Of a DNA stretch of 61,048 nucleotides, positions 5,809-26,123 are shown in pieces. Each line of letters begins with the position of its first letter. The stretch's first letter is position 1. This DNA is from an uncultured Ectothiorhodospiraceae bacterium (GTDB lineage Bacteria; Pseudomonadota; Gammaproteobacteria; S012-40), in assembly GCA_964636675.1 (NCBI GenBank), contig CAZWUO010000003.1, positions 1 through 61,048 on the forward strand. Reading direction: 5' to 3'. The notes below the pieces were generated by a model. The model did no database searches and was not told the DNA's origin. It saw only the letters and a list, made by a program, of their open reading frames with translations. The position numbers and the translations under genes are program-made.

Positions 5809-6204
5809 TTAGGGCGTGTCGCCAGGAATCACTTGAGCATAATTCAGAGGAAATTTTAGTACGGTTTCTTCCTGCTTGCTATTTCGAACAAAAATATTCA
5901 ATACATCCTTCTGCGGATCAACTACCCGTAACGCGGTACGATAAACACCCATATTGCCATCTTCGATGGCCTGCTTCCATGAGCCAGCGTCACCTAATCG
6001 CAACTTCACGAGTAAATCCCAAGCGGGCTTGCGCCCATCGCGATTAGCTATTATGAGAAACTCAATCATCCCTGGCTTCGGCACCGGCGGCCGCGCTTCC
6101 ACTCTGAACGTCAGACCTTGCCATTCTTGAGCCGGGGTTGTTGGAACCTCTCCGGTACAAGAAATCATTAAACTGACCAGAACTATAATACTAACTCTAA
6201 ACAT
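5809..6204 (-). CDS. Putative lipoprotein, FixH/YtkA-like beta-sandwich
   Basis: Lipobox-like MISC; beta-rich with GVY motif; last gene of the ccoG unit. Confidence 0.55.
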   Translation of the reverse strand: MFRVSIIVLVSLMISCTGEVPTTPAQEWQGLTFRVEARPPVPKPGMIEFLIIANRDGRKPAWDLLVKLRLGDAGSWKQAIEDGNMGVYRTALRVVDPQKDVLNIFVRNSKQEETVLKFPLNYAQVIPGDTP

Positions 6205-6512
6205 TAGGAATCGCTCGCATTTGAGATCAAGTAACTCAGCAATTCGTTTTTATCTTTCTCAGGAATTGCATCCAGTGAATTCATAATTCGATGATTATTC
6301 ATTCGGTATATAACGTTAGACCATTCTAAAGATTTATGCTCGTAGGGCTTTGGTGGGGCATGACAATCATTACAATACTTCATCAACATTGGGTGATTAT
6401 TCGCTTTTAGTTGAGCGAGGTTTTCGCTCATGGTTTTTTCCGTATCTGTGCACGCTGAATTCAAGCCTAATAAAACGATGACAAATAACAAATACCCATT
6501 ATTTTTCTGCAC
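6204..6512 (-). CDS. Monohaem c-type cytochrome, probably a lipoprotein
   Basis: CNDCH followed by W..VIYRM; N-terminal hydrophobic stretch with NSAC. Confidence 0.8.
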   Translation of the reverse strand: MQKNNGYLLFVIVLLGLNSACTDTEKTMSENLAQLKANNHPMLMKYCNDCHAPPKPYEHKSLEWSNVIYRMNNHRIMNSLDAIPEKDKNELLSYLISNASDS

Positions 6513-6915
6513 TATCTTTTGCTTCTTGTTTTTGCTTTAGCTTTTTTTCTTTTTTTTCCGCAAGTTGATGGCGTAAATCAACAAAGTAGTAAATGATAAA
6601 ACTCATAAATACCACCCAGGCCACTCCCGCAGGAATCCCCCAGTCAAACCAGGGGCGCTCATAACCCGGTCGATTTCCCCAAAAAGGAAATGTTAGACCT
6701 ACCGCAACAAGTAATAACACCACAAATATCGCAATAAACCAATAAGGAATAATGACATTATTCTCAGCCATTTCTTCTACCATTTCCCAATCTTCAAGGC
6801 CTCGTCTATCTTTGCGCTCTTCATCAGATTTATATCCAAAATTATCGCTTCGAGACTCTCCCCATTTTGCTCCTCGTGTTGCGTCTGGGTTTACTGTATC
6901 TTTTTTGGTAGGCAT
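6499..6915 (-). CDS. Two-TM membrane protein with CcoP N-terminus-like segment
   Basis: ENNVIIPYWF...TFPFWG and RPWFDWG; resembles 14904-15545. Confidence 0.6.
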   Translation of the reverse strand: MPTKKDTVNPDATRGAKWGESRSDNFGYKSDEERKDRRGLEDWEMVEEMAENNVIIPYWFIAIFVVLLLVAVGLTFPFWGNRPGYERPWFDWGIPAGVAWVVFMSFIIYYFVDLRHQLAEKKEKKLKQKQEAKDSAEK

Positions 6916-6919
6916 AAAA

Positions 6920-8248
6920 CTAACCTCGTGTTACGACATGATTTAAACGTACAAAATTTTTCCAGCCATCGTCTGACTCTGCCCTGACGATGAAGCTATA
7001 TACACCAGGAACCAATTCTGAGCTAAACCGCAAAAAGAGGTCTCGTCGACCAACCGTAGAAAAACTCACAGATTCGCTGCTCAAAGTATAATCGCTCGCA
7101 CTAAGACCTTCAATTTTAAGCCTTACCTTACTCGGTTCAAAAAGCTTATTGGCAATATTTATTCGATATTCAGTGATTTGATTCCCTTGATGAATTTCAG
7201 ATTTATAGACCGCCAAATTGTGCGCATCATAGGTAAACAAACCATATACAAAAATACTGACACCAACCAACCACACGGGCATTACCCAGGCAAGCCTTTG
7301 CTTAGCACTCGCAAGTGGTCTTAACAAGCGGTGTTCGCTTGAAATAGTCGTCCTTTCGCCCAATTTAAAACTCAATAGCCCTGATTTGTGTTCTTTAGCA
7401 TGCATCGTATCACACGCCGAAATACAAGCACCGCAATTTGTGCAGCTATCAAATGTTGTAGTGTTTCTAGGGTCGATCTGAACCATACATTTAGTGACGC
7501 AATACGAACATTTTTCACATTCAGCTGATCGAGTCTTATCATAGTGGATATGTAGAGTATCTTTGGTCTTAAATAAAAACTGCCAGATTCGATAAATACA
7601 CATATAACGACATAAAAAGTGCCTTACCACCGCTAAATTCACAAATACGATAAATGTAAATACCATATAAACCCAGCGCAAGGAAAACGCAGACTCTGTT
7701 TGATCTTGGAATGAAATCAAACCCCATAACTGCGAGGGTTCGATAAAATACAGCAGGGGAATTAAAGCGGCAAGCAATGACAAAGCAATTAGCTTAACTC
7801 CAAGAAAAAGCCAGTTTAAGGTCTTATTTTTGCGGCTCGTTACTTTTGTAGAATTCTGATTTTCCCAATCTATCACCGCCCGCTTACCAAGCGATTTAAA
7901 TGTAAACTTGTCAGCCAGTGATGAAAACGTGTTTTGCGGACACAGCCAACCGCAAAACGCAGTACCTACCGTAGAGTAAAGCATAATAAAAGTACAAGCT
8001 AACGCTAACCAGAAACCAAAAACGAGTGAAAAATCAGCAAACCATACTTGACGCCCTAATACGACGAAACCTGACGAAACGTCAATTCTAAAAATACCCA
8101 ACAAAGGAATCAGTATCAGCAAGAGGATCATTCCAAGCTGGACAACTTGTCGCCCCCAATTGAGGGAACTTCTTCTGGAACCCGGGTCAGTAACAACGGA
8201 TATTTTGCTAAGCGCTTCATTTGCCTTCATAATAGCCGATTCTAACAT
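6920..8248 (-). CDS. ccoG: CcoG/FixG-like membrane 4Fe-4S ferredoxin (cbb3 assembly, cupric reductase family)
   Basis: CGWLCPQ, CRYMC, CEKCSYCVTKC, CTNCGACISACD; multi-TM with C-terminal Ig-like domain. Confidence 0.85.
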   Translation of the reverse strand: MLESAIMKANEALSKISVVTDPGSRRSSLNWGRQVVQLGMILLLILIPLLGIFRIDVSSGFVVLGRQVWFADFSLVFGFWLALACTFIMLYSTVGTAFCGWLCPQNTFSSLADKFTFKSLGKRAVIDWENQNSTKVTSRKNKTLNWLFLGVKLIALSLLAALIPLLYFIEPSQLWGLISFQDQTESAFSLRWVYMVFTFIVFVNLAVVRHFLCRYMCIYRIWQFLFKTKDTLHIHYDKTRSAECEKCSYCVTKCMVQIDPRNTTTFDSCTNCGACISACDTMHAKEHKSGLLSFKLGERTTISSEHRLLRPLASAKQRLAWVMPVWLVGVSIFVYGLFTYDAHNLAVYKSEIHQGNQITEYRINIANKLFEPSKVRLKIEGLSASDYTLSSESVSFSTVGRRDLFLRFSSELVPGVYSFIVRAESDDGWKNFVRLNHVVTRG

Positions 8249-8441
8249 GCCAATAAGCTAACTTCACTGAATAACGTTTGAATTACTGCCATACCCCCTC
8301 ATGAATTCGTAGCAAAACACTCAACAATCGTCAAAATGACAAAAACTACAAAGTGCTTGTATTTAAAATACTAATTCGCTATATTCGGTCAGAGCACATA
8401 GAGTTATGTCGTTTAACAAAAATAATCCGGGGGATTGAATA

Positions 8442-8561
8442 ATGGTTGATAACATTGGAATTAATATCCTTATTCCTTTATTAATATTTGGCTTCATTAT
8501 TGTTGGTTCAATGCTAATGTCAGGTGCCGCTCTTAAAGACACAATGGAGCGCCGCGAGTAA
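8442..8561 (+). CDS. 39-aa single-TM microprotein (not in ORF track)
   Basis: MVDNIGINILIPLLIFGFIIVGSMLMSGAALKDTMERRE; GGGGGA RBS upstream; terminator directly after. Confidence 0.65.
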   Translation: MVDNIGINILIPLLIFGFIIVGSMLMSGAALKDTMERRE

Positions 8562-8581
8562 ACTAACGTATTGCTGGACAT

Positions 8582-8610
8582 AAAAAAGCCCGGTTTACCG
8601 GGCTTTTTTA
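8582..8610. terminator. Bidirectional intrinsic terminator
   Basis: AAAAAAGCCCGGT-TT-ACCGGGCTTTTTT between convergent genes. Confidence 0.88.
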
Positions 8611-8632
8611 TGTTCATTAGAGGCAACTTATA

Positions 8633-11266
8633 TTAATTCACGTGTTGTGGATTCAGCGATTCATACAACGATTTGTAATACCTCGATTGCGTCAAATTAC
8701 CCTCTGTCTCAGCTATTTTCCCTAAGTCTTTTATCGCCAAATAATGATCTGGCCTAATTTTTAGGATCTCTAAAAGTGCATTCTTCGGAGAAAGGCCTTG
8801 CTCCTGCGCTTGACTTTTAGACGCATACATCTGGTCAGCAATACCAAACCCCAGCCAACGATCTTGATTATTTAGCATATAACCCTCGCGTAGCTTCTGA
8901 AACCCCTTATTAAACTCACCACGCAATGAATCAACCATGCCTCCTCCCCATAAATTTGTAGCCTTGAATGCGCTGACAAACTGCGCTAAGCCTTCTCCAG
9001 GAATAGCAAGCTCTCGCGCAATGTCTTGCTCTGCAGAACGCATCGAAAGAACATATAGAAACGTCGTCAAAATGTTAAATTTGCCATCATATTTCGATTG
9101 CGGAATTAGAAATTCAAGTTTAGGAGACCACTCTGACTGTACAAGAACGCCCTCATCTTCTATCTCTCCGATATAACGCCCTAGCCACGTCCAAATCCCC
9201 TCGCCACCCGTTTTGTCCATAATGGCTGAGTCATTGTTTGCAATCTGATGCGCTCTCATTGATGCATAAAAGGACATTTTAGCATTAGAACCCACTAGCG
9301 CGAGCCTAAACCCATCTAAAAACATAGCAGAGTGGGGGAATACACTTCTAAACGTACTCAAGACAATCTTCAACGACTCGACATCGTACTGATTCAGCGC
9401 CACCCATTGTACAAACAAACCCTCGCTACGCAGAATTCCTTTAATCCGTGCAAAATGTTCTACGGACAATAGTGCGCCCCTGCCAACCAAATCAGGATGA
9501 AACAAATCACCAATCACTACGTCGAATTTATCCTGAGTTAGCTTCGTATATCTTCTCGCATCGTCTTTAATGATTCTGATTTTTTCAGTCACATCAAGAT
9601 TAACTGAGGAAAAATAAGTCCCTGCCGCCGCGATTGCTCCAGCAGACAATTCCACCGCCGTTACACTAACTCCAGGAAAAGCCAGCGCACCCGACGCCGT
9701 TATGCCGGTTCCCAGGCCCAAAAACAAGACTTCTTTGGGCTCCCTGTGCAACAGAAGCGCAAGCCGGGCTTGATTTTTTTGCACAGTCACAGCCGTCGGC
9801 TCGGACGAAGCATCCATCCTTTGCAAATCAGAAAGCAAAAGCCGCTCACCTGAAGGCTTGTCTACGACACTGGTTAGTGAGACCGCATCTTCGTAATAAA
9901 AAATATCTTTAGCGTTAGCATATGCCTGAGGAAGCAGGCTGGAAACCGGCGGAAATCCCAGTATAAATAATCCCAGCAACAACACTGTCATGGAGGACAA
10001 CTGATACCATTTAGCCGAAACCCAGGTAAAACTTGAGAATATAACCACGAGTACAGCGATATATATAATGGCCACTGAACCAAATACAGGTAACAAAATA
10101 AATGTTGCAATCAATGCACCCAAGGCACCGCCAATCGAGTTTGCTCCGTAAAGCAAAACAGCGTCTTCTGAGCTACCTGATATATGCCGAATTAATACGG
10201 GAAACCATATTCCAAACAAGAAAGTAACCGGAAAAAATATTACCAACAGAATAAAAAATTGACTTAATATTGCCTCATTAAAACTTTGGAAATTCGCTGT
10301 CTCAGCCCAAGCAGAGACCAATGGAAGCAATAAGATGGAAAGCAAACCAAAAAATGCGATTAACAAAGGAATGACGGCCAATACCGCTTGCTTCTGAAAA
10401 AACCTATGCATAAACGCACCTACCCCAATACCCATAAGAAAAATGGCAAGAAGCATTGCTAATATATATTCAGTCCTTAATAACACCATTCCATAAAGCC
10501 GAACCCATGAAATCTGCAGCATCAAAGCCGCCAAACCTATAAATGCATACGCAATTAGGGAACTCTTTTTCACTGAGCTTGTTTCTTGATTTCTGCTCAC
10601 GGTATTTTCAGCTTGCGAACGCCCAACAAAAAAAGACAATACAAAGCATAACGCAGCAATAAGTAATCCTAATATGGCAATTAGGCGCGTGGAAACGATC
10701 CATCCAAAAACGGGCAATAGGTATATTGGAGTAATTGAACCAAGCACACCACCCAGGGTATTAATCCCATAAATTTGGCCAACCGAAATATTGAACGGCT
10801 TTAATACCTCGAGCAGCAACGCAAACGTTGAACCCATGGCAACTGCTGGAATAAATAGCAGAACAAAACAAATAAAAGATTCTAATAAGAAGAACGAACC
10901 CCAACTATTTTGCGCTGTATTTAAATAAACAAAATTTTCAATTTCTGGGATAAACTTGGGAAGTAGAAACGCAAAAATGGCGATGAAAGCCTCGAGTAAA
11001 GCAAACATTAGCAGCGGCGAAATTTTACGCCTTACTAAATATACACCCAAAAAGCCCCCGACCCCTAGGCCCGCCATAAACGCGGCTACCGTAATTGCTA
11101 CACCAAATATGTTTACCCCAAAAATAAGGGATAACATACGAACCCACAATATTTCGTATGCCAAAGAAGTAAAACCGGTAAAAAAATAAGCCGCCGCAAT
11201 TAGAAGCGCTGTAAATGCGAAAGGGGATTTACCTGAAACTTGCTCTCTGATTAGGCTTTCAGGCAT
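8633..11266 (-). CDS. Membrane-bound spermidine-synthase-like protein (multi-TM domain plus SAM-binding domain)
   Basis: LAYEILWVR and IYGINTLGG repeats in the TM region; LGLGTG, VEL, DDARRY, DVVIGDLFHP. Confidence 0.88.
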   Translation of the reverse strand: MPESLIREQVSGKSPFAFTALLIAAAYFFTGFTSLAYEILWVRMLSLIFGVNIFGVAITVAAFMAGLGVGGFLGVYLVRRKISPLLMFALLEAFIAIFAFLLPKFIPEIENFVYLNTAQNSWGSFFLLESFICFVLLFIPAVAMGSTFALLLEVLKPFNISVGQIYGINTLGGVLGSITPIYLLPVFGWIVSTRLIAILGLLIAALCFVLSFFVGRSQAENTVSRNQETSSVKKSSLIAYAFIGLAALMLQISWVRLYGMVLLRTEYILAMLLAIFLMGIGVGAFMHRFFQKQAVLAVIPLLIAFFGLLSILLLPLVSAWAETANFQSFNEAILSQFFILLVIFFPVTFLFGIWFPVLIRHISGSSEDAVLLYGANSIGGALGALIATFILLPVFGSVAIIYIAVLVVIFSSFTWVSAKWYQLSSMTVLLLGLFILGFPPVSSLLPQAYANAKDIFYYEDAVSLTSVVDKPSGERLLLSDLQRMDASSEPTAVTVQKNQARLALLLHREPKEVLFLGLGTGITASGALAFPGVSVTAVELSAGAIAAAGTYFSSVNLDVTEKIRIIKDDARRYTKLTQDKFDVVIGDLFHPDLVGRGALLSVEHFARIKGILRSEGLFVQWVALNQYDVESLKIVLSTFRSVFPHSAMFLDGFRLALVGSNAKMSFYASMRAHQIANNDSAIMDKTGGEGIWTWLGRYIGEIEDEGVLVQSEWSPKLEFLIPQSKYDGKFNILTTFLYVLSMRSAEQDIARELAIPGEGLAQFVSAFKATNLWGGGMVDSLRGEFNKGFQKLREGYMLNNQDRWLGFGIADQMYASKSQAQEQGLSPKNALLEILKIRPDHYLAIKDLGKIAETEGNLTQSRYYKSLYESLNPQHVN

Positions 11267-11273
11267 TTAACAG

Positions 11274-11621
11274 TCAATAGGGATAAAACCAAACTACAGC
11301 AGTTACCGCATGAGCAACCGTTAAAAATACAGATATGCCCGCAAATATCATATGCGGCACAAAAACATTTTTCCCATAAATCCCCAATGCCAAACCAAAT
11401 GCTGAAGTAGCAAAAATTGAAATCAACAAAATAATACCCATTATAAACAGTATTTCATGCCTACCCTGGTCAAGATCACTAAGCTCCTGCAAGTTGATTT
11501 CTGCACTTTTAAATGGAGCCATAACAGCGGCGCCGCTTGATTCCTCTGCGACAGCACTCAAAGGAAAGGCAAGCAACAGCAGTAAAAGCCCTATAAAAGG
11601 GACCTTAGAAAATTTTAGCAT
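11274..11621 (-). CDS. Small membrane protein with three intramembrane His
   Basis: Signal-like N-terminus, two TM helices; RHE...PHMIFAGISVFLTVAH (H-x13-H). Confidence 0.65.
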   Translation of the reverse strand: MLKFSKVPFIGLLLLLLAFPLSAVAEESSGAAVMAPFKSAEINLQELSDLDQGRHEILFIMGIILLISIFATSAFGLALGIYGKNVFVPHMIFAGISVFLTVAHAVTAVVWFYPY

Positions 11622-11633
11622 TTTGAAAACCTA

Positions 11634-11864
11634 TTATTTTACGTTTTTAGGAGACTTGTCTTTCTTAAATGCGAAATGCCAATATAAAAGCGCCATCAAA
11701 ATTGCAGGCGCCAAAACCATAGGCAAAAGAAAAATAAAGATTGCCCAAGGTGTTTCTATCGTTACATGTAACCAACGATAGCTATCTGTCGCATCAGCAA
11801 AAGAAGAAGTAGAGAATAGCAGTCCAAAAATTGCAGAATATATTATTAACAAATATTTGCTCAT
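11634..11864 (-). CDS. Small membrane protein (signal peptide plus one TM)
   Basis: SSFA cleavage-like site, then hydrophobic helix and basic tail; operonic spacing. Confidence 0.65.
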   Translation of the reverse strand: MSKYLLIIYSAIFGLLFSTSSFADATDSYRWLHVTIETPWAIFIFLLPMVLAPAILMALLYWHFAFKKDKSPKNVK

Positions 11865-11879
11865 AATTACACCAATTTA

Positions 11880-12950
11880 TTATTGATCAACATCTTTTAC
11901 AGTGCGAAAGCCGTAAAAATCAGATGCAAAGTTAGGCCAAGAAAAATTTCGATGATAAGAAGATGTCGAAAATGGATCCCCCTTCCAAGACCCGCCTCTC
12001 ATTACTTTATATCTTTCTTCGGTCTCAAGAAAATCTAGCATTTTTAAGTTTCGTTCTTTCGAGTCTTTTGGGATAACTGGCACTTTGGCTTTAAAAAGTG
12101 AACCTGAGGCCTTGCTTCCCGTGTATGGAAAAAAGTCATCCGTAACCCACTCACTCACATTCCCTGCCATGTCCATCACACCATATGGGCTAGCTCCCTG
12201 AGGGTATGTTGTCACATCTGTCGTAGATCCTACGTGATAGTACGTGTTTAAAAGCTTGGGATCCATACGATTTCCCCAAGGCCAGCGCCTAGAATCATCT
12301 CCTCTCGCGGCTTTTTCCCATTCGGCTTCTAGAGGCAATCTCTTTCCGGCCCATTTTGCATAAGCTCTCGCATCAAACCAAGAAACTAAAACAACAGGAT
12401 GCATTTCCACCCCAAGAGGTATTTTGCCTGATTCCCAATGCAATGGGGGACGATAGTCCGTCGCAGCAACAAATCGAGCGTATTGCGCATTGGTAACCGG
12501 ATATTTATCGATTTCGTAAGCCGTTAACATTACTGGATGTGCTGGTTTATTCTGAGAATCTGCTTTAACATTATCGGTACCCAACATAAACTCACCAGCA
12601 GGAATTAAAATTTGAGTATCAATTTCTTTCCACGTAACGGCATCTAATAGCGCTTCAGCCTCCTCAACCGTATAAGTTATTTTTGCTATCCGCCGATGTT
12701 CTTGCGCTTCGTTCCGATACAAGTCCTCGCCCGCTGCTCGCAGATGGTCGTTAATTTCTGACAGATCATATGCTGCAAGATCCCGCATCTGCGTCATCCT
12801 GTTTAAACCTAGCTCTAATACATGAATAGTCCCCAATACAAGCGCTATTACAATACAAGACACAAAAGTAGCACCGAGAATTTTTTTTCTAAACAATATT
12901 TGCTCTGCAGAAACCTTTTCTTTTTTAAACGCAGGAACTTGCATTAACAT
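11880..12950 (-). CDS. Membrane-anchored formylglycine-generating-enzyme-fold (SUMF1/NirV/PvdO-like) protein
   Basis: IPAGEF, VTNAQY, HPVVLVSWFDA, RLPLEAEWEKAARG, DMAGNVSEW, RGGSW, GFR. Confidence 0.9.
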   Translation of the reverse strand: MLMQVPAFKKEKVSAEQILFRKKILGATFVSCIVIALVLGTIHVLELGLNRMTQMRDLAAYDLSEINDHLRAAGEDLYRNEAQEHRRIAKITYTVEEAEALLDAVTWKEIDTQILIPAGEFMLGTDNVKADSQNKPAHPVMLTAYEIDKYPVTNAQYARFVAATDYRPPLHWESGKIPLGVEMHPVVLVSWFDARAYAKWAGKRLPLEAEWEKAARGDDSRRWPWGNRMDPKLLNTYYHVGSTTDVTTYPQGASPYGVMDMAGNVSEWVTDDFFPYTGSKASGSLFKAKVPVIPKDSKERNLKMLDFLETEERYKVMRGGSWKGDPFSTSSYHRNFSWPNFASDFYGFRTVKDVDQ

Positions 12951-12953
12951 ACC

Positions 12954-13481
12954 TCATAAACTTTCTTTGCGAACATCTGTTTTTGGCGCAACCTCTTTGT
13001 CTGCAGCGTCAACTTGATACCGTATGTGAATATCTGACTTTGCACTGCGCCCGTATGTTTTTTTAATAACATATTCGCCGACGATGCCGCCACCCGCACA
13101 TGCTTCAACACATACAATCACCACCAAAATCCAATAACCAATGGGAAGAACTGACACACCTTCAGTTAAAAAACGCATGTCATAAGACGCGATATACTCG
13201 GGGATTAAAATAATTAACGGTGAAAAATTAGCCAACATTTTCCCGCCCAGCCCATAAATTGCAGACACCACCATTCCCGCCACAAAGGGAACAACAATAA
13301 TGGTAACTATCCACATTGGCCTGAACGTATGCAATAAACCAAAATAGAGTTCCAGATCAACACCGGTTAAGGCTTTTCCCACATAAAATACCAGCGCACC
13401 AGCAAACACTGCAACCAATGCCCACACTACATCGATCAATTTAATCTTACTGGATAATTTCAGCATCATCAGTGTAATCAT
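12954..13481 (-). CDS. Multi-TM membrane protein of unknown function
   Basis: Hydrophobic ORF tightly packed in the operon; exact start uncertain. Confidence 0.7.
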   Translation of the reverse strand: MITLMMLKLSSKIKLIDVVWALVAVFAGALVFYVGKALTGVDLELYFGLLHTFRPMWIVTIIVVPFVAGMVVSAIYGLGGKMLANFSPLIILIPEYIASYDMRFLTEGVSVLPIGYWILVVIVCVEACAGGGIVGEYVIKKTYGRSAKSDIHIRYQVDAADKEVAPKTDVRKESL

Positions 13482-14231: not shown

Positions 14232-14242
14232 ACATACTTCCT

Positions 14243-14711: not shown

Positions 14712-14744
14712 ATCTCTTACTAAAACGAAACTAGTATCTAATTA

Positions 14745-18044: not shown

Positions 18045-18090
18045 TTAAATAGTCCTCCCAATTAATAAACCCTGATAGTAAAACCCAAGA

Positions 18091-18180: not shown

Positions 18181-18196
18181 GCTAAACCTCCTTCAG

Positions 18197-18487: not shown

Positions 18488-18616
18488 CTCCACCCTCCGA
18501 AGCAAATGATAAGACCCTATAAATGTAATTTTTCACAGCAAATTATGATAATTAGTTTATGAAAATTTACACATTTCCCATGTAAATAAGGAAACCTTGG
18601 CAGATTGACACAGCTT

Positions 18617-18630
18617 GTGATTAACGTCAA
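18617..18630. promoter_or_regulatory. FNR/CRP-family-like box
   Basis: GTGAT-TAAC-GTCAA versus TTGAT-N4-ATCAA; about 130 bp upstream of the ccoNO unit. Confidence 0.45.
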
Positions 18631-18756
18631 GATAATTGTATGAAAAAACAATTCACGCCAAAAAGTTGGCAATTATGCAACAAAAAATAATACAATCACC
18701 GGCTGCTTCGCGCTATATAGGCAGAACTAGAAATTCAGATCAGAAGGTAGGGTAAT

Positions 18757-18957
18757 ATGCAAAAAAGAGAAATCGCTATTTATGTTTTTGTCGGCTTAAG
18801 TTCGCTCTTAGTTGTCTCATATACAGTGCATATGTTTATTGGTGGACTCGTAAGTGAAGAGCTGGAATCACAAATTACAGTGGGCATAACGATCGTTTGG
18901 GCCTGCCTATTAATAGCAGCAGGAATTGACATCAGCAAGCGCAGACGGCACAACTAA
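18757..18957 (+). CDS. Small two-TM membrane protein
   Basis: Two hydrophobic helices, YTVHMFIGG, basic tail; purine-rich RBS. Confidence 0.7.
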   Translation: MQKREIAIYVFVGLSSLLVVSYTVHMFIGGLVSEELESQITVGITIVWACLLIAAGIDISKRRRHN

Positions 18958-19132
18958 TCGATATAAAAATACGTATGCCAATATACTACAGAAACAATTT
19001 GAATAAGACTCAAGGAGCTGAGTATAAACAACATCAATGAATGCATACAGGAAAGGAGTCGATAGAACTCTGCCTCCCCCCAATCAGAAAAATACTAAAC
19101 TCAAAGCAAGCCCACGCTATGTCACCATAAAA

Positions 19133-19588
19133 CTATCTAAACACTCGCAACAATGCTTTTGCTTCACTAAACACCCCGTCATTAACAAACTGACCCTTGT
19201 GAAACACCTGCTGCTGCTTCCTACCCTCCCCATCTAATCCAGATAAACCGATACTTTTGCCTCCGGTATCTGAGAAAAATCTAACGTTCTTAATCATCTC
19301 AATCGACTCACCACTTTTTAGCTCAAGACGAACCACCTTGTTAGAGACATCCAACGCAATTGCAGAAGATGGCAAAATCATAAGCCGAGTTTTGGCTATA
19401 CGATTGAATGCTATTAAGAAAATCATGGTTGTCATAAAAACCAATAAATACGTAATATTTTGCTCACCATTAAACCAGAACTGAGAAGCAATAGAGATAA
19501 GCGCAATCAGCGTCGGAATGTATAAGAGCAAATCCCACTTTACTCCCTTTATGTCTTGCACCAATTCGAATCTTGTACTTTTTGACAT
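19133..19588 (-). CDS. Two-TM protein with soluble C-terminal domain, unknown function
   Basis: ORF coupled to the upstream operon. Confidence 0.7.
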   Translation of the reverse strand: MSKSTRFELVQDIKGVKWDLLLYIPTLIALISIASQFWFNGEQNITYLLVFMTTMIFLIAFNRIAKTRLMILPSSAIALDVSNKVVRLELKSGESIEMIKNVRFFSDTGGKSIGLSGLDGEGRKQQQVFHKGQFVNDGVFSEAKALLRVFR

Positions 19589-19595
19589 AATCTGC

Positions 19596-20099
19596 CTATC
19601 CTTTTTTTTCCGCCAACACTTGTCTAAGCACTCCGTCTAACTCACCATACAACATGCGTCCCGCTCGGCGAAATACAACTTCACCCTCAGTGTTTATTAT
19701 AAAAGTCCACGGATCACCTTTTACCCGATAAGAAATAAATGCCTCAGGATTCATATACTGATCCATATGAAGAAAAACAACGTCTTTCTCATACTTATCA
19801 ATCATCGCCTTTAACATTTGCAACTGCTTGTCACAAACAGTGCAATGCCCAGGAGTAGCAAACTCAATCACCATTGTCTTTTTCAATGCCAGCGCATCAT
19901 CGACTGAATATTGATACATTCGTGCATCAGGATGGCGATAACTTGTTAACCTGCTTAAGTCACCTCCGACATCATCAATGTACTTGGTTCGCAAGCTTGG
20001 AGCTTCCACACCTAGACCCAAACGACCTGCCGGATCCTCCAAACAACTCGAAAGGAGACTTACTACACCTATAAACAGAGCAAACTTAACGATCCTCAT
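19596..20099 (-). CDS. Thioredoxin-fold lipoprotein
   Basis: Start MRIVKF; lipobox LSSC; EFATPGHCTVC (CxxC) and cis-Pro-like GDPWT. Confidence 0.8.
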   Translation of the reverse strand: MRIVKFALFIGVVSLLSSCLEDPAGRLGLGVEAPSLRTKYIDDVGGDLSRLTSYRHPDARMYQYSVDDALALKKTMVIEFATPGHCTVCDKQLQMLKAMIDKYEKDVVFLHMDQYMNPEAFISYRVKGDPWTFIINTEGEVVFRRAGRMLYGELDGVLRQVLAEKKG

Positions 20100-20622
20100 A
20101 ACCTTTTTCCCAATTTGAGCACGTTTTAAATAAATTATACGCCCATATAAAATTTGCGAGCAACACCAATGTACCAAATATACCCATAATGGCTAACAAG
20201 GGTTTTACTATTACCTCAACTTCTTGAGGTGAAGACGTTACACTTGCCATACCCCCCATTGTTCCCGCCATTACAAAAAACACAACCATTCCTATCACAC
20301 CAACATTATGCACCCAAAAATGAACCTTAACCAAAGTGAGACTATAAATAGGCCTCTTAGTTAGGCGCGGCACAACATAGTAAACAGCGGCGAAAATAGC
20401 CATTTCCACCCAACCAAGTAAATTTATATGAGTGTGACCGCGCACTATTAAATCCCCGTGAAGGCGATGATCAACGAAATAACGAAACTCCGCTATTCCG
20501 CCCATTAAGGCTCCCCAGGAAAACCCTATAATACTGTAGATAATACACGCATAAACAAACCACAAAATATACTTTCGAAATTCAACTTCATTTTCATGCA
20601 ACCATGGCGCAGACATTTGCAA
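20086..20622 (-). CDS. Four-TM single-repeat haem-copper-oxidase homologue
   Basis: GHTHINLLGW, AAVYYVVP...IYS...VHFW, NFIWAYNLFKT align with helices IX-XII of the neighbouring CcoN. Confidence 0.85.
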   Translation of the reverse strand: MQMSAPWLHENEVEFRKYILWFVYACIIYSIIGFSWGALMGGIAEFRYFVDHRLHGDLIVRGHTHINLLGWVEMAIFAAVYYVVPRLTKRPIYSLTLVKVHFWVHNVGVIGMVVFFVMAGTMGGMASVTSSPQEVEVIVKPLLAIMGIFGTLVLLANFIWAYNLFKTCSNWEKGYEDR

Positions 20623-20634
20623 CTACCCTTCTAA

Positions 20635-21231
20635 TTATTTAACTGTCGATTCAACTTCACCCTCTTCAGGTGCTTTTTCTCTAATGTCCTTGTACTTTTC
20701 AGTCCATTCTGCGGGTGCCCACATATTTACCATATTATCAATAAATGCAGAATCTTCGGGGGGCGGTACTTTCGCGACAGAAGACCCAGGGTCGGCCCGA
20801 AGCTCTGACAAAAATACGACAATGGCATGACGATCTTCAGCGCTCATCTCACTGGCATATGCCGCCTCTTTTGGCCGCAACCCATGATCAAGCGTTATCC
20901 CGCCTTCGTAAACCGACTCTGGATGCAGTAAGAATGTTGCCAACCATTCTTGCGAACGCTTCGAACCTATCCCATCAAGAGATAAACCCATACTCGTCCC
21001 TGTTCTCAACGCCCGATGACAAGAATTACAACGTGCCTCACGATATATTTTTGACCCTTCGGCACCTAATGGCGAAAAATCAAAATGCGTAGTTTGCGAA
21101 AACATTGGCTTGTCCGAAGTTAACCTCACGGTTTCTAAGCCTACATACGCGATTAGCGCTAATAAAAAAAAGATACTAAAAACTATAAAAAGAATTTTTT
21201 CACCTGATTTTAAAGATTGTTTTTTTTTCAT
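20635..21231 (-). CDS. Membrane-anchored monohaem cytochrome c (NorC/CcoO-like)
   Basis: N-terminal TM, GSKIYREARCNSCH, LDGIGSKRSQEWL. Confidence 0.85.
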   Translation of the reverse strand: MKKKQSLKSGEKILFIVFSIFFLLALIAYVGLETVRLTSDKPMFSQTTHFDFSPLGAEGSKIYREARCNSCHRALRTGTSMGLSLDGIGSKRSQEWLATFLLHPESVYEGGITLDHGLRPKEAAYASEMSAEDRHAIVVFLSELRADPGSSVAKVPPPEDSAFIDNMVNMWAPAEWTEKYKDIREKAPEEGEVESTVK

Positions 21232-21265
21232 TGTATAACTGTACCAATTTTAGCTTATTAAAAAC

Positions 21266-21299
21266 AAAAAAAAAGCGGGCTAAACGCCCGCTTTTTTTT
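21266..21299. terminator. Intrinsic terminator after the cytochrome c4 gene
   Basis: A9-GCGGGC-N5-GCCCGC-T8. Confidence 0.85.
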
Positions 21300-21311
21300 A
21301 TGGTGCTTTAA

Positions 21312-22073
21312 CTAGTAACCAGCTTCATAGGGCTGCAAAATATTGCCCGTAGAATATGCCGATGCATTAGTTAAGTACGCCGCTGCATTATTAATATCTT
21401 CGTCAGACATATTTTTAGCAACTTTTTGCATTTGACTCATTGGGTCATTTGTTCTAGACCCATCGCGCCACTTTTTCAACTGATTAACGAGGTACACATA
21501 CTTTTGAAGCCCAATTTGCGGATAAATGGGTGGTGCACCACGTCCATTATACCCATGACAAGCTCTGCAAGAAGGTACAGGCTTGGCTCGATTGCCTTGA
21601 CCATACTCTACCAGAGTTTTGCCCTTGTGACTTAAACCAACTTCAACGCCTTGCTCTTTGAGGGCCTTTAAATCAGATCCCTTATATTCATCAACTTTGC
21701 CTGTTGCCAAAGTTGAAAGATAAAAGGCAACGTCATTACGATCCTGCGCAGACAAATTCTTCGCATTATCGTTCATAACAAACATGGTAGTGTCCAGACG
21801 CTTATCAGTTGCATAATCTTCGAGCTGCTTACGCAGAAAAATCCAAAACTGACCCGCGATACGTGGCGTCCCTAATGCATCATCACCCGTGCCATCATTT
21901 CCATGACACGATGAACACGCGGGAACCGAACCCTTACCGTTCTCATATATACTCTTACCATTCGCAACATCGCCACTACCTTTTGGGTATTGCGGCGAAG
22001 ACATTGCTAATGTAGGTACTACTGCCCCTACTACGAAAGCGGCGACAGAAATAGCGGTGACTAACCGTTTCAT
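21312..22073 (-). CDS. Dihaem cytochrome c4-family protein
   Basis: Signal peptide, CSSCH and CRACH, PRIAGQ / YPQIGLQ...YLVNQL, axial Met residues. Confidence 0.92.
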   Translation of the reverse strand: MKRLVTAISVAAFVVGAVVPTLAMSSPQYPKGSGDVANGKSIYENGKGSVPACSSCHGNDGTGDDALGTPRIAGQFWIFLRKQLEDYATDKRLDTTMFVMNDNAKNLSAQDRNDVAFYLSTLATGKVDEYKGSDLKALKEQGVEVGLSHKGKTLVEYGQGNRAKPVPSCRACHGYNGRGAPPIYPQIGLQKYVYLVNQLKKWRDGSRTNDPMSQMQKVAKNMSDEDINNAAAYLTNASAYSTGNILQPYEAGY

Positions 22074-22570
22074 AACGAAGAAGCCCTCCCAAGTTATTTT
22101 TAGCTTCCCAGAAACCTAATAAAAATTTTTATTCTTTCCAACCAAAAACATTCAGCTAATTAATGAAATTGATCCAACACTGAAAGAACCAAAACCAACC
22201 AAAACTCTTACGAATTCATTTTCAGCATAAGCCAAGCAAGCACAAATGCACCTGTGAACCATAAGAGGTATAGAATTGCAACCGATTCTGTTTGTAACAT
22301 GCCCACCTCCCTAAACAGACATAAATACGAATTATTTGTAAAATCGCCGAAATTTATATTACAGCGAACCTAGGCATTCAATCATTAAATGAAAATGGAG
22401 TCAACAGGCATATAAACGCAATTTTACAAACTATTCCAAATAATTACTAAATCCCTAGTCCAAATACTATTTCTTTACCTCAAACATTAAATTCACAGAT
22501 GACGCAGAAATACAATTCCGATATGCTGCAGCTCTTTTTAATCAATAGCGAATTAACCCGGCGAACAAAT

Positions 22571-24064
22571 ATGAATACCAATAAAATACCTGAACAAGTT
22601 TATGCGCTCGGTTTGCTCATTCTTTGGGGCGGAGCGCTACTCACACTTGGCGTATTAAGGCTTGACGCCTTCGGGCTCGACGAAAGCGCAGCCCGTGGAC
22701 TCCTTTTGAATTGGTCTATATCTGACCAAATAATCAGCCCTGTGTTGGTTCTCGGCGTCCCTGATTTTCGTGCCTTATTGTTCGCACCCATTGGTATATA
22801 TTGGTCAGGCAGTATCTTAGCAGCCAAGGTCTTCAGTCTAATCATCAGCTTTTTAGCAATTTATTTTCTTTACAAATGGTGCGAAAAACAGGGCAAACAA
22901 GAAGCCGGACTCGTTGCCAGCGCCTTATTGTTAATCTCACCCGCTTTTATCAGCCAAATCGATTCCATGGGTGCAGCGCCTTACTTGTTACTTGGCTTTG
23001 GGCTAGGCGCATGGCTAGACAACGCTTATCGCGCTCGCGATAAGGATTTCGGTGGATGGTATTTCCTTCAATTACTATGGATCGCAATCCTCGTCACCCT
23101 ACACCCTATTGGACTCGCCTATCCCATAGCACTGGCTATTTGGTGGAAAACAAACCCCGATAAAGTAAAAAAGAGCAAGCATATATATGTCGGGATACTC
23201 ATCGCAACATTACTCGCTATTGCCATAAAAATGGGCTGGCAAGACCTAAGCTGGTTTGCAAACCCAATAGAACAACTCGCGAAGGCCTTGCAAGGCTCCG
23301 TCATTTGGAGCACCGAAGACGTTCGCTGGCTTCCTGGCATTATTGCTGCCGCACTACTCGTGACCATCATTCTCGTTGACTACAAAAAGCTAATTCAAGA
23401 TCTTCTTGGGATGATGTTGTTCGCAGCCTTACTGCTCGGCCTACTAGTCGCAGACGACGTATGGGCAACCATTGCGCTGGTTCTCATCGTCTTTCGCGGC
23501 TTAACAATACTTATCGATTTGCAAAAGTCCACAGCAAGATCTTCTTTCATTGGACAGCGCGGCATATTCGTAGTCATCGCTTTTTTGGTCTCGACCCTTT
23601 TTATGCTTGAGGCAAAAACCCATGCTTTAGCGATCAAATATGGAATATTAAGCCCTCAAGATGCGCTGATACTCTCGCTGACTGAAATTGCAAAAAATGA
23701 AAACGAGCCTTTTCGGGCGGCCAGCCAGTGGCCCGGACGAACCGTCATCGCGACCAAGCGAGACGTCCTACCCCTGCCTCCTGGGTTTGATACCTCAGAA
23801 GCCTTTTGGGAAAATGCAGGTAAAAATTTAACCCACATTATATTTGACCCTAAAGCACCTGAAAACCAAGGGTTAACGGAAAACTTAGCCAATCTTGTTG
23901 GAAAAACCGATACATTAGCACTCATAAAAGGTGGCGCATTAATCAAGCTCGTCGATCACGAGGTTCAGTTATTTATCCGACCCGATGAAAAAATTGCTGA
24001 GGATACCAACTCCCGCCATCCCACACCTCCGATACATACAAACAATGAAGAAACAGCTAGGTGA
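22571..24064 (+). CDS. Multi-TM GT-C-fold (ArnT/PMT-like) glycosyltransferase candidate
   Basis: DE motif (GLDES) after the first TM, about 11-12 TMs, soluble C-terminal domain. Confidence 0.6.
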   Translation: MNTNKIPEQVYALGLLILWGGALLTLGVLRLDAFGLDESAARGLLLNWSISDQIISPVLVLGVPDFRALLFAPIGIYWSGSILAAKVFSLIISFLAIYFLYKWCEKQGKQEAGLVASALLLISPAFISQIDSMGAAPYLLLGFGLGAWLDNAYRARDKDFGGWYFLQLLWIAILVTLHPIGLAYPIALAIWWKTNPDKVKKSKHIYVGILIATLLAIAIKMGWQDLSWFANPIEQLAKALQGSVIWSTEDVRWLPGIIAAALLVTIILVDYKKLIQDLLGMMLFAALLLGLLVADDVWATIALVLIVFRGLTILIDLQKSTARSSFIGQRGIFVVIAFLVSTLFMLEAKTHALAIKYGILSPQDALILSLTEIAKNENEPFRAASQWPGRTVIATKRDVLPLPPGFDTSEAFWENAGKNLTHIIFDPKAPENQGLTENLANLVGKTDTLALIKGGALIKLVDHEVQLFIRPDEKIAEDTNSRHPTPPIHTNNEETAR

Positions 24065-24221: not shown

Positions 24222-24332
24222 CAACATGGATTAGTTTTGCTAATCCTTGCACTACTAATTAAGCATTAAAAAGCCGAATAGCCTACGCCTCCATGATATA
24301 TCACCTCTAAAGGTGAAAGGATAATACAAAGT

Positions 24333-25334
24333 ATGAACCGCGCATACCGAACGTTTGTTCTGTGGCTAATCTGGGGATCTGCCGCAACAACCATTTATTT
24401 AGGATTATATCTAGACACCGACATACTCACTTTTTTTCGCCAAGATGAAAGTAAAATTACATGGATTATTATGTTTTTATTCCTATTTGGCGTAGCCGCA
24501 AGTTTTTTTCTTACCGTTGCACTCACCAAGGAAAGCATAGAGGCTGAGCTGCAAGATCAATTAGCCAGTGAAAAAGGAATTGCCGGCCTAGAACCCAGCG
24601 GCCGTAGAAAAAAAACGGTTAACCGTTTTTATGACTCACTAAAAATTATCGCATTATCCAATGAAAAACCACACATAGAAGCACTGATCGACGTTGAGTT
24701 CTCCGCATTCTCACGTATGAGTCATGGCATAGAAGTATTAGGCAATCTTCTCATTACCTTAGGACTCATTGGAACCGTGATGGGACTCACCCTAACACTG
24801 ACAGGGCTGACAACGTCACTCGATGCACTCGGACACGATCAGGACATGCTCTTGTCGGGATTACGTAAAGCAATGGGAGGCATGGGAACCGCTTTCTATA
24901 CGACACTGCTCGGTGCAGTACTTGGCGGTGTGTTACTGCGTATTTTTGCGCTCATCACCGAAAATGGCGTCGCTTTTTTGCAAGAAATAGTCTCTAAGAC
25001 CTGTATGATTCATTGCGCTGCAGATTTTAAACAAACCGTAGAACGCGATATACGTTTTTTAAATGTCGAAGTTGAAGCGCTTGGTGATAGAGTCAAGAGC
25101 CTAAAAGGCGCTTTTGACGACTCTAAACACTCTGTCAATGAATTCCATAAAGCCATTAAAAACCTGTATGAACTCGGCGGAAGTGAAGATGGAGTATACA
25201 CATTGCGCGAAACCCTACATATGCAAAAATATTATCGTGCGCTATTGCGCCAAGAACTTCAGCTTATGAACAAGCTCAATCGATCTTGGTGGGCGAGATT
25301 CAAAGAGTATTTAATCGGCAGCAAAAAAAAATAG
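24333..25334 (+). CDS. MotA/TolQ/ExbB-family ion channel subunit with C-terminal helical tail
   Basis: LGLIGTVMGL and GMGTAFYTTLLGAV helices; heptad-like tail. Confidence 0.85.
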   Translation: MNRAYRTFVLWLIWGSAATTIYLGLYLDTDILTFFRQDESKITWIIMFLFLFGVAASFFLTVALTKESIEAELQDQLASEKGIAGLEPSGRRKKTVNRFYDSLKIIALSNEKPHIEALIDVEFSAFSRMSHGIEVLGNLLITLGLIGTVMGLTLTLTGLTTSLDALGHDQDMLLSGLRKAMGGMGTAFYTTLLGAVLGGVLLRIFALITENGVAFLQEIVSKTCMIHCAADFKQTVERDIRFLNVEVEALGDRVKSLKGAFDDSKHSVNEFHKAIKNLYELGGSEDGVYTLRETLHMQKYYRALLRQELQLMNKLNRSWWARFKEYLIGSKKK

Positions 25335-25349
25335 AAGACGAATCATCCT

Positions 25350-26123
25350 ATGAGGAGCCGACGCACTAAAAGCACTAATATCTACGAAAGTTTTTCAGAC
25401 GTATCCCTGCTGATGCTAGCGACTTTTATTTTCTTGATGGTAACCATACTGATTACTTCACGAATGGCACAAGAATATGAAGTTCCCAAGCTCAAAGCAG
25501 AAATTGAGACCTTGAAAAATAAACTCGCTGCTGCCGAACTCGATAAACAATCATTTAGCAGCGCATTAGAGGAAATGGTCGTAGCAGGCGAGGGTAGCGC
25601 AAGCGCGCTTGACAAAGTCGTGGAAACAGCAACCTTTGGACGCAAAGATTTTGATTTATTCATCAAAGGCTTAAAGGAATTGCCGGGTACAGATTTACAT
25701 CTAGTGATTGATGCTTCGGGATCCATGCACGGCCTTACCACGTTCCTCATCCCGATACTCAGGGCAATCGTCATTCGTTCAAATAAAGAGCTTTCAGCCA
25801 TTACATGGTTTTCCGACGGAATCGCTGAAACCTATACGGGAACTCTCGGAGAAATGTTTGACAAGCTAATGTCAGGTGCGCCATTTGGTGGCAACCGTGA
25901 AACCATCGGGAAAGCACTACGCGTAGCCGCACGCAATTCACACGCACCTGGAGCTTACATACTTGTTGGTGACGAACCTTCTGATGACGTTATTTATTAT
26001 TCAGATGTTCCAAGCCCCGTTTTCACCCTACCTTTAGGCCGCTCTGACCCAGAAACCACCCAGGAATACAAAAAAATTGCAGAAAAAACTGATGGACAAA
26101 TGCTTCATCTCGATTTTAAATAG
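25350..26123 (+). CDS. MotB/ZorB-like TM helix plus coiled coil plus von Willebrand A domain
   Basis: YESFSDVSLLMLATFIFL (Asp17); vWA MIDAS LVIDASGSM...VGDEP. Confidence 0.8.
   Translation: MRSRRTKSTNIYESFSDVSLLMLATFIFLMVTILITSRMAQEYEVPKLKAEIETLKNKLAAAELDKQSFSSALEEMVVAGEGSASALDKVVETATFGRKDFDLFIKGLKELPGTDLHLVIDASGSMHGLTTFLIPILRAIVIRSNKELSAITWFSDGIAETYTGTLGEMFDKLMSGAPFGGNRETIGKALRVAARNSHAPGAYILVGDEPSDDVIYYSDVPSPVFTLPLGRSDPETTQEYKKIAEKTDGQMLHLDFK

Follow-up and report, generated by a model that had tools for sequence, protein, structure and literature searches.

A copy of a conserved, non-canonical cbb3-type oxidase cluster in an uncultured Ectothiorhodospiraceae bacterium

What kind of respiratory system is encoded by a block of some 20 kb in which genes for the cbb3 oxidase subunits CcoN and CcoO stand among c-type cytochromes, small membrane proteins and assembly-type genes? 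The question is raised by positions 5809-26123 of a stretch of 61,048 nucleotides, referred to here as the window (GenBank assembly GCA_964636675.1, contig CAZWUO010000003.1, our contig C3), from an uncultured Ectothiorhodospiraceae bacterium whose genome comprises 4.14 Mb in 440 contigs at 98.7% completeness. A preliminary description of the window had presented the block as a top system candidate, in which all products form one respiratory supercomplex. Our analysis leads to another answer, to which we assign a probability of roughly 0.75: the block would be a copy of the non-canonical 'distal'-type cbb3 cluster, made up of an electron path, a core oxidase unit and assembly genes. The block is no candidate for a new system, since its conserved arrangement has already been printed in a preprint on Tenderiales (10.1101/2022.05.06.490989); the cassette is a further copy of this cluster, published as conserved and of unknown function.

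The cassette comprises 22 supported genes at 5809-22073, all of them on the minus strand and arranged head to tail. Beyond 22073 follow three plus-strand neighbours coding for a GT-C-like protein with 12 transmembrane (TM) segments, a MotA/ExbB-like and a weakly vWA-like protein. Nearly all items of the preliminary description, which had counted about 25 genes around ccoN and ccoO, were recovered at the positions given there. Several small open reading frames (ORFs) proved to be unconserved. In the order of transcription, the upstream part encodes a dihaem c4-type cytochrome, the monohaem cytochrome cytc198, a truncated CcoN (truncN), a thioredoxin-fold lipoprotein and the membrane protein tm151, and ends at a gap of about 630 bp. 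The core part consists of tm102, CcoN, a CcoO-like protein, p213 and tm48, and is followed by tm113, a FixS/CcoS-like protein, the monohaem cytochrome cytc168, tm175, a protein with the fold of the formylglycine-generating enzyme (FGE), tm76 and tm115. At the end lie the genes for an 877-aa (amino acid) fusion of an MFS-like and a spermidine-synthase-like part, a CcoG-like protein, tm138, the monohaem cytochrome cytc102 and a lipoprotein of 131 aa. At least nine of the products are small membrane proteins, in line with the more than eight noticed before.

The block is real and strongly conserved. Among 8000 candidates scored, 546 CcoN relatives were found at E <= 0.001; the 120 matches listed are 73-90% identical to CcoN, and their names point to metagenome-assembled genomes of Gamma-, Beta- and Zetaproteobacteria, to Mariprofundus ferrooxydans and to a metagenome of mine drainage. 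In a scan with one genome per species, 346 loci encoded a CcoN relative, and 80 of them were retained for synteny. Each ORF of a locus was assigned to its best window query (reciprocal assignment), and counts out of 44 given below refer to the loci with full 10-kb flanks. CcoN, CcoO, p213 and tm102 were present in 44/44 loci and most other cassette genes in 37-43/44. The gene order was identical in the 18 loci listed and recurs, far above chance, in gamma- and betaproteobacterial loci and, by protein homology, in Zetaproteobacteria. Conservation as a block, on which the preliminary description had made its proposal depend, was thus borne out in the 44 full-flank loci. The upstream five-gene block from the dihaem cytochrome to tm151 was not in the flank in 6/44 loci; one locus without it (L053, genome G035) has a weak truncN-like match beyond the opposite end of the cassette.

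The central product is CcoN (469 aa; 16635-18044), which matches the Pfam profile COX1 (PF00115) over profile positions 3-436 with E 2.9e-72. Its closest solved relative is CcoN of Pseudomonas stutzeri (3mk7_A, E 6.1e-61), to which residues 22-451 were aligned. H65, H206, Y250, H256, H257, H344 and H346 align with residues of 3mk7_A that we take to be the helix-VII Tyr of the cross-link and the His residues liganding haem b, haem b3 and CuB, and they are present in 81/81 sequences. CcoN is best regarded as the catalytic subunit of a C-family haem-copper O2 reductase. A scan of the genome with PF00115 gave no matches other than CcoN, truncN and another truncated copy, which is encoded on contig C63. 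As the sole full-length match, CcoN is the only full-length haem-copper oxidase of the cell; a bd oxidase and the cytochrome b of a bc1 complex are also encoded. On the canonical ccoN equivalog TIGR00780, CcoN scored 224 bits, below the cut-off of 583.15, and the scores in 30 related genomes were bimodal, with canonical copies at 556-801 and cassette copies at 216-225 bits. This low score, together with novel nitric oxide (NO) reductase families mentioned within the superfamily in the accessible part of a preprint, could be taken to mean that the enzyme is an NO reductase or another haem-copper enzyme that does not use O2. We consider this highly improbable: none of the 81 sequences departs from the three His ligands of CuB and the cross-link Tyr found in C-family O2 reductases, which speaks for reduction of O2 and not of NO, and the enzyme is the sole haem-copper oxidase of an organism that otherwise has just a bd oxidase.

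The CcoO-like protein (326 aa; 15560-16540) carries one CXXCH motif. Its match to Pfam FixO (E 8.3e-16, 58.6 bits versus a cut-off of 29.6) is confined to residues 175-264, and its score on TIGR00781 is 57.8 bits versus a cut-off of 200.65. The haem site, consisting of CWWCH and M257, is kept in 78-79 of 79 sequences. After the membrane anchor, a domain of about 145 residues has been inserted. It was modelled, at about residues 65-170, with a predicted local distance difference test score (pLDDT) of 80-93, and the model had no fold match in the PDB. The small Gly/Met-rich membrane protein tm102 (18197-18505) is encoded directly upstream of ccoN in 80/80 loci and has the conserved motif GMGNGSVFGA..MC..GRG. 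It matched DUF4233 of Pfam below the cut-off (E 3.7e-4), and generic MFS-fragment look-alikes were all that the Atlas returned, at a recognition value of 2260 versus a guide value of 2300. We regard tm102 as a candidate extra subunit. The last gene of the core unit codes for tm48 (14745-14891), which has one TM segment and was seen in 22/44 loci, detection being limited by the short query.

A haem-bearing CcoP is missing, as had been stated before: the cassette encodes no dihaem CcoP, and the best match to TIGR00782 in the whole genome reached 39 bits versus a cut-off of 179.95. The gene directly after ccoO codes for p213 (213 aa; 14904-15545; 44/44 loci), a haem-less protein with two TM segments. 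In its model (pLDDT 80.7), two TM helices flank a haem-free periplasmic domain. The N-terminal motif and first helix of p213 resemble the anchor of CcoP, weakly so in direct tests. A p213 profile built from 29 sequences and searched against 1.84 billion representatives matched 39 clusters only, which indicates a narrow family; three of these matches (P0125, P0126 and P0133) span the profile over nearly its whole length, and many others are fragments. The match P0147 (E 1.1e-14) passes Pfam FixP_N with 33.7 bits versus 24.9 and has a layout in common with five further matches, namely the motif, a helix, PLWG.RP, a variable linker, PWWD.GY and a second helix. In 15 other genomes of the same GTDB family, p213 was found in 15/15, the cassette-type CcoN in 14/15 and canonical CcoN/CcoP in 3/15, while p213 occurred in 0/15 genomes from other families of the same class. 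A short paralogue of its N-terminal module, tm138 (6499-6915; 22/44 loci, limited by the flank edge), is encoded beside the CcoG-like gene and was aligned with p213 by hhalign at a probability of 95% and E 3.7e-8.

The prediction of complexes between CcoN and the small proteins, proposed in the preliminary description, gave a positive result for p213. The CcoN-p213 complex was scored at 0.74 (runs of 0.82, 0.74 and 0.74) versus 0.00 for the best of three controls; this mark was reached by 58/80 solved complexes and 2/110 mismatched pairs, a calibration that is only rough because our own alignments were used. At least 69% of the contacts were shared between the runs, and the pLDDT of the partner was at least 75. 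According to the prediction, residues 24-62 and 153-210 of p213 contact residues 223-249 and 262-291 of CcoN, so that p213 would dock on helix 8 and on the loop that joins helices 6 and 7. We assume that this region is the site of the CcoP anchor and of the proton-channel entrance in solved cbb3 structures. From sequence likeness and modelled docking, we lean towards the view that p213 is the surviving, haem-less N-terminal anchor of CcoP.

The cluster type has been described repeatedly. The Tenderiales preprint (10.1101/2022.05.06.490989) reports a region of 26 conserved proteins, viewed there as possibly "a sort of alternative complex IV", in the order dihaem, monohaem, truncated CcoN, thioredoxin, four unnamed proteins, CcoN and CcoO; then three unnamed proteins, a monohaem, one unnamed protein, a 'serine threonine protein kinase', a single-TM protein and two unnamed proteins; and finally CcoG, one unnamed protein, a monohaem, two unnamed proteins and a truncated CcoN. 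The same text states that the region had been seen earlier in freshwater iron oxidisers and suggests a membrane-bound complex. The annotated members of the cbb3-1/cbb3-2 region of 'Ca. Tenderia electrophaga' and Tenderiales thus stand in the same order as in our cassette, with the member annotated as Ser/Thr kinase at the position of the FGE-fold protein. The likeness extends to a uet-like multihaem cluster, which is likewise found in the present genome. A difference concerns the truncated CcoN that closes the printed order: here its gene and that of its partner are on contig C63 and not at the end of the block. In Tenderia, 'complex IV-2' and the dihaem Cyc1 were reported among the highest-expressed genes, and synteny with M. 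ferrooxydans was noted (PMC5371394, in part). The accessible parts of these Tenderiales and Tenderia papers give no roles for the small proteins.

Further reports, likewise available in part (PMC7029218, PMC8788666, 10.1101/2023.01.26.525709), distinguish a 'proximal' from a 'distal' cbb3 by subunit composition. As in our cassette, the 'distal' form of Zetaproteobacteria and Gallionellaceae is described there as CcoN and CcoO without CcoQ or CcoP, and our CcoN is 73% identical to a protein of Mariprofundus ferrooxydans and 77-79% identical to proteins from metagenome-assembled genomes of Gallionella and Sideroxydans. In Sideroxydans lithotrophicus ES-1, the distal ccoNO was reported to be expressed constitutively at a level about 3-fold above the proximal one, and in the proteome of M. 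ferrooxydans PV-1, CcoNO were reported as the only ones detected. The names of the relatives and the published clusters of Tenderia and of iron oxidisers bear out the link to neutrophilic Fe(II) oxidisers and electroautotrophs that had been named in the preliminary description. Our searches of the literature and of PDB sequences returned no structure, subunit list or kinetics for this oxidase type.

In common with canonical CcoNOQP-CcoGHIS systems (3mk7/5djq, 6xkw, 8smr, 9g6b), the present block has retained the CcoN residues for catalysis and the CcoO site for haem c, and it includes CcoG-like and CcoS-like genes. It differs from them in having a haem-less FixP_N-related protein in place of the dihaem CcoP, an insert of about 145 residues in CcoO, no CcoH or CcoI in the block and about 12 extra conserved genes. 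A limited literature search found no report of a haem-less CcoP-anchor family and its docking, of the conserved His residues of truncN, of the paralogous modules or of the terminators described below; all of these points are computational.

Several observations weigh against our explanation of the cluster. CcoN, CcoO and CcoG fall well short of the cut-offs of the NCBIfam equivalogs, so that the O2 affinity and proton pumping of canonical cbb3 oxidases are not simply transferable. As to p213, a direct comparison with Pfam FixP_N (PF14715) gave E 0.39 and 10.9 bits, below the cut-off of 24.9, hhalign against ten canonical CcoP sequences gave a P value of 3.6e-4 at a probability of 37%, and the p213 profile matched no canonical CcoP at E <= 0.001 among the 1.84 billion representatives. 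The CcoN-p213 score itself may stem from likeness to solved CcoN-CcoP structures. The label 'distal' has indirect support only, from subunit composition and from homology to CcoN of iron oxidisers. In ES-1, the distal form was up on thiosulfate rather than on Fe(II), according to the accessible part of the source, which makes a specific tie to iron doubtful. Finally, the roles of about 12 cluster genes remain guesses.

The organisation of transcription bears on the question of whether all products belong to one machine. Two terminator-like hairpins, both on the minus strand, were found in the cassette: one at 21267-21299, directly after the dihaem c4 gene, with a stem of 14 pairs followed by a T run, and one at 14684-14711, after tm102-ccoN-ccoO-p213-tm48, with a stem of 11 pairs, 7 of them G-C, and a T run. 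In a simple scan of our own over five intervals across the related loci, a hairpin with T run was present between the end of p213 and the start of tm113 in 58/69 loci, between the end of the dihaem gene and the start of cytc198 in 41/48 and in the long gap before tm102 in 8/52, compared with 0/80 between ccoN and ccoO and 0/6 between the FGE-fold gene and tm76, a contrast that is indicative only because these control intervals are shorter. The stem sequences vary between loci with the pairing maintained. Conserved hairpins of this kind point to several transcription units made at different levels, and the pattern would fit a highly expressed dihaem carrier, a core unit and lower read-through into assembly genes. 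The non-coding gap at 18506-19132 between the upstream block and the ccoN unit is probably a promoter or regulatory region; the corresponding gap measures 300-1100 bp in most related loci listed (about 2 kb in two) and contains no ORF common to them. With up to one mismatch to the consensus, five FNR/Anr boxes were found in the whole window versus 4.72 expected, none of them inside 5809-26123. Sigma-70-like sites, with 44 found versus 46.9 expected, were uninformative.

A single stable respiratory supercomplex of all 22 or so products, as first proposed, would agree with the co-linearity of the genes across classes, with the membrane or periplasmic nature of most products, with the predicted binding of p213 to CcoN and with the membrane-bound complex suggested in the accessible part of the Tenderiales preprint. 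It is nevertheless rather improbable in view of the conserved terminators that divide the block and of the upstream five-gene block, which is out of the flank in the 6/44 loci mentioned and, in one genome examined, lies at the opposite end. In the present genome, another contig carries the gene for the second truncated CcoN, and the PV-1 proteome is reported to show CcoNO alone. A further point concerns the CcoG-, CcoS- and thioredoxin-type products, as proteins of these types are assembly factors in canonical systems.

In the upstream block, truncN (178 aa; 20086-20622; 38/44 loci) is the one-third-size oxidase homologue already noticed previously. It matches COX1 at profile positions 299-435 (E 1.5e-18) and is homologous to helices 9-12 of CcoN, being aligned by hhalign with CcoN residues 306-460 at a probability of 100%. 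H63, H65 and H101 are kept in 55/55 truncated orthologues and H55 in 50/55; H63 and H65 match the positions of the haem b3 and haem b ligands. A second truncated CcoN of 171 aa, detached from the cassette, is encoded at C63:13709-14224 and has the same His pattern by eye. It forms a pair with a Cys-containing partner of 211 aa (C63:13077-14224, minus strand; L003:767-1914) beside a thioredoxin gene. In 5/5 other genomes checked, the second truncated copy is found either at an end of the cassette or slightly past it, and in 8/80 loci it is located 3' of the 877-aa gene and directly followed by the gene for the 211-aa partner; in the present genome, the pair has moved away from the cassette.

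Since truncN and its relative are partial copies of CcoN, these genes and several of the small ORFs could be viewed as decaying remnants of a duplicated cco operon. This is hard to reconcile with a truncN that is intact in 54/80 loci at a median identity of 70.6%, with the three invariant His residues and with the recurrence of the second copy in the genomes checked, and we give the idea very little credit. The conserved ligand positions argue against decay and for haem binding, and haem b is the probable cofactor of the truncated CcoN proteins.

Paralogy extends to the monohaem cytochromes, three of which accompany the dihaem c4, as had been described. Both cytc198 (20635-21231; CXXCH at residue 68; 37/44 loci) and cytc168 (13447-13953; CXXCH at residue 60; 43/44 loci) are anchored by one TM segment. 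They match Pfam Cytochrom_C with E 4.1e-8 and 1.1e-5, respectively, and cytc198 shows in addition a weak match to the N-terminus of FixO (E 3.2e-4). The two are clear paralogues (hhalign probability 100%, E 1.1e-50), and neither was significantly related to the CcoO family by hhalign (P 0.039 for cytc198 and 0.0099 for cytc168). No relationship was found by hhalign between tm48 and tm76, tm113 and tm115, or tm151 and tm175. The third, cytc102 (6204-6512; CXXCH at residue 47), is a lipoprotein with a lipobox-like motif and was counted in 10/44 loci, as it mostly lies beyond the flank.

This modularity raises the possibility that several independent machines have been inherited together: the oxidase core, one or two mini b/c modules of truncated CcoN and a monohaem cytochrome, and a separate membrane module with a non-oxidase function of its own that extends from cytc168 over tm175, the FGE-fold protein, tm76 and tm115 to the 877-aa protein. 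Such a scenario would explain the paralogous pairs cytc168/cytc198, p213/tm138 and truncN/second truncN, with each truncN beside a monohaem cytochrome, and would agree with the retained haem-ligand His residues of truncN and with the terminators that separate the units. The fixed gene order across distant taxa would be unusual for unrelated functions, and the activities of the downstream module as well as the binding and haem content of the modules are only putative. We regard it as doubtful, though worth keeping in mind. A more specific version, in which the cluster consists not of a single oxidase and its helpers but of three cbb3-derived modules (CcoN-CcoO with the haem-less anchor, truncN with cytc198, and the second truncN with cytc102 and tm138), seems unlikely to us. 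If it were true, the truncated CcoN with its four to five helices would constitute a novel type of haem-b cytochrome in the membrane, which could pass electrons from periplasmic cytochrome c into the membrane, e.g. to quinone for the reverse electron flow required by lithoautotrophs.

We return to the preferred explanation, a distal-type cbb3 cluster with core unit and assembly genes, and to the remaining products it has to accommodate. The dihaem c4-type periplasmic cytochrome (21312-22073; 38/44 loci) has CXXCH motifs at residues 53 and 169, a signal-like N-terminal segment and a match to Pfam Cytochrom_C in two stretches (E 1.6e-18). It occupies the same head position as the Cyc1-type dihaem of the published cluster; the name Cyc1 would apply to it by position, not by sequence. 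The thioredoxin-fold lipoprotein (19596-20177; 38/44 loci) matches Pfam Thioredoxin with E 1e-5 and contains a CxxC in the conserved motif GHCTVC. Translation probably begins at an internal Met near position 20099, after which a lipobox-like LLSSC follows. Neither a Pfam nor an NCBIfam family was found for tm151 (19133-19588; 38/44 loci), which has two TM segments and a C-terminal soluble domain.

Downstream of the core unit, the small membrane protein tm113 (14243-14584; 42/44 loci) gave no significant family match. The CcoS/FixS-like small membrane protein (13950-14231; 43/44 loci) matches Pfam FixS with E 1e-5 (25.6 bits versus 23.1), and its D10, W12, Y15 and W17 are present in 69/69 sequences. 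No family match was obtained for the polytopic tm175 (12954-13481; 40/44 loci). The membrane-anchored FGE-fold protein (11880-12950; 43/44 loci) matches Pfam FGE-sulfatase with E 2.8e-53, and its closest solved relatives are ToxD, OvsA, EgtB and FGE. A formylglycine-generating enzyme requires a catalytic Cys pair. As the sole Cys of the protein, C32, is located in the anchor and the FGE domain has none, we rejected this function for it. Next to it are encoded tm76 (11634-11864; 41/44 loci), with a signal-like segment, one TM segment and the conserved motif DSYR.lHV, and the small membrane protein tm115 (11274-11621; 43/44 loci), in which H90, M91 and H104, located in helices, are kept in at least 90% of the sequences.

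The 877-aa protein (8633-11266; 43/44 loci) is a fusion of an MFS-like part and a spermidine-synthase-like part with an S-adenosylmethionine (SAM) fold. It matches Spermine_synth with E 2.3e-10 and NCBIfam NF037959, a family of fused MFS/spermidine synthases, with 88.9 bits versus a cut-off of 40, and it keeps the Gly-rich nucleotide-binding motif. An assignment as SpeE spermidine synthase was rejected, the score on TIGR00417 being 37.9 bits versus 249.55 and all SpeE equivalog cut-offs being missed. The CcoG-like polyferredoxin (6920-8248; 28/44 loci, at the flank edge) exceeds the cut-offs of Pfam Fer4_18 and Fer4_5, reaches 113 bits versus a cut-off of 316.7 on TIGR02745 (E 1.6e-32) and has two conserved CxxCxxCxxxC motifs. 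The presence of thioredoxin-, CcoS- and CcoG-like genes, of the FGE-fold and spermidine-synthase-like proteins and, more generally, of assembly-type genes within the block was therefore correctly recognised in the preliminary description, as was the absence of ccoI. The block encodes neither CcoH nor a CcoI Cu-ATPase; the genome has two Cu-ATPases at other sites. The FixH-like gene that had been listed was not recovered: the last gene of the block, which codes for the 131-aa lipoprotein (5809-6204; 6/44 loci, mostly beyond the flank), has no known family, with no Pfam match at E <= 0.1 and no FixH match even at E <= 10.

Within and around the cassette, further ORFs were assessed. Those at 18045-18203, 18517-18672, 18780-18953 and 18910-19083, in the gap and at the start of ccoN, have no counterparts in related loci and are probably not genes. 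Between the 877-aa and CcoG-like genes lies an ORF for a non-hydrophobic protein of 87 aa (8363-8626, minus strand), which had tblastn matches in seven loci and a counterpart in only one locus by reciprocal assignment; its status as a gene is doubtful. Adjoining the end of the cassette, the region 3354-5627 contains an ORF of 504 aa on the plus strand, by eye a possible threonine dehydratase, and one of 245 aa on the minus strand with the look of a ParA-type ATPase. The ORFs of this region have counterparts in 0/80 related loci, which marks the boundary of the cassette and may mark a rearrangement point.

On the other side, the divergent 12-TM GT-C-like protein (22499-24064, plus strand) is a frequent neighbour (36/44 loci), although the GT-C assignment made earlier is weak, with a sub-cut-off match to Pfam PMT_2 (E 0.0033). 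The pair of MotA/ExbB-like and vWA-like proteins (24333-26123, plus strand) is outside the conserved set (6/44 and 7/44 loci) and was only in part as described: the former (24333-25334) matches Pfam MotA_ExbB with E 1.8e-6, and the latter matches VWA weakly (E 0.17), with a DxSxS motif seen by eye. Beyond this pair, a polytopic membrane protein of 650 aa is encoded at 26725-28677 on the minus strand and was matched in 3/80 loci.

The lithotrophy suspected from the window and the search for cyc2, sox and RuBisCO genes recommended at that stage led us to the rest of the genome, which encodes one RuBisCO large subunit of form-I size. SoxB was not found in the genome, and DsrA only as a sub-cut-off match. 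At C18:19847-31579 (locus L100:1848-13580), a multihaem cluster follows the printed uetA-J order, with a tetrahaem cytochrome, a peptidyl-prolyl isomerase, an unassigned 595-aa protein, two trihaem c7 cytochromes, an unassigned 525-aa protein and another trihaem c7. These are followed by two proteins with NHL repeats and by a cytochrome that is truncated at the end of the contig and shows 7 CXXCH motifs; just upstream of the cluster, one more NHL-repeat protein is encoded. Two proteins of 422 and 384 aa, encoded on the minus strand at C26:5581-6849 and C34:17962-19116 (L098 and L099), begin with a signal-like segment, end in Phe and combine a single CXXCH, near residue 33, with a porin-like body. 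They gave no NCBIfam family and, in the Atlas, unnamed cytochrome and porin-like clusters only; by their architecture, they are Cyc2-like candidates for fused cytochrome-porins. The gene on C34 directly adjoins one for a Cu-ATPase (C34:19253-21064). Elsewhere, an ORF of 455 aa with 17 CXXCH motifs was noticed at C46:230-1597 on the plus strand, as were fragments of a NiFe hydrogenase large subunit at contig ends (C277:2755-3240 and C169:3-200), the latter starting at base 3 of its contig, so that the gene may be split by the assembly. RuBisCO, the uet-like cluster and the Cyc2-like proteins support the notion of a lithoautotroph that may take up extracellular electrons.

For such an organism, we propose the following working model of a cluster type that would be common to Tenderiales-like Gammaproteobacteria, Gallionellaceae and Zetaproteobacteria and that here encodes the only full-length haem-copper O2 reductase of the cell. 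Electrons acquired extracellularly would cross the periplasm on the soluble dihaem c4 of the cluster and reach the haem c of the CcoO-like protein, either directly or via cytc198/cytc168. From there, they would pass to haem b of CcoN and on to the haem b3-CuB site, where O2 would be reduced. The dihaem domains of CcoP would have been lost, with the anchor persisting as haem-less p213 on the cytoplasmic loop and helices 6-8 of CcoN. The core enzyme would probably consist of tm102, CcoN, CcoO, p213 and tm48, made from one transcription unit ended by the conserved terminator, and the CcoS-like, CcoG-like, thioredoxin-like and other products would be made at lower levels and serve mainly in cofactor insertion and assembly.

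A set of iron- and electrode-oxidising autotrophs has the oxidase type in question as its chief or sole haem-copper oxidase. The present copy does not represent a new kind of system, but it offers a clean case of the cluster as sole haem-copper oxidase. If the true subunits, the replacement of CcoP and haem binding by the truncated CcoN proteins were known, the final step both of neutrophilic iron oxidation and of electron uptake at biocathodes would become testable.

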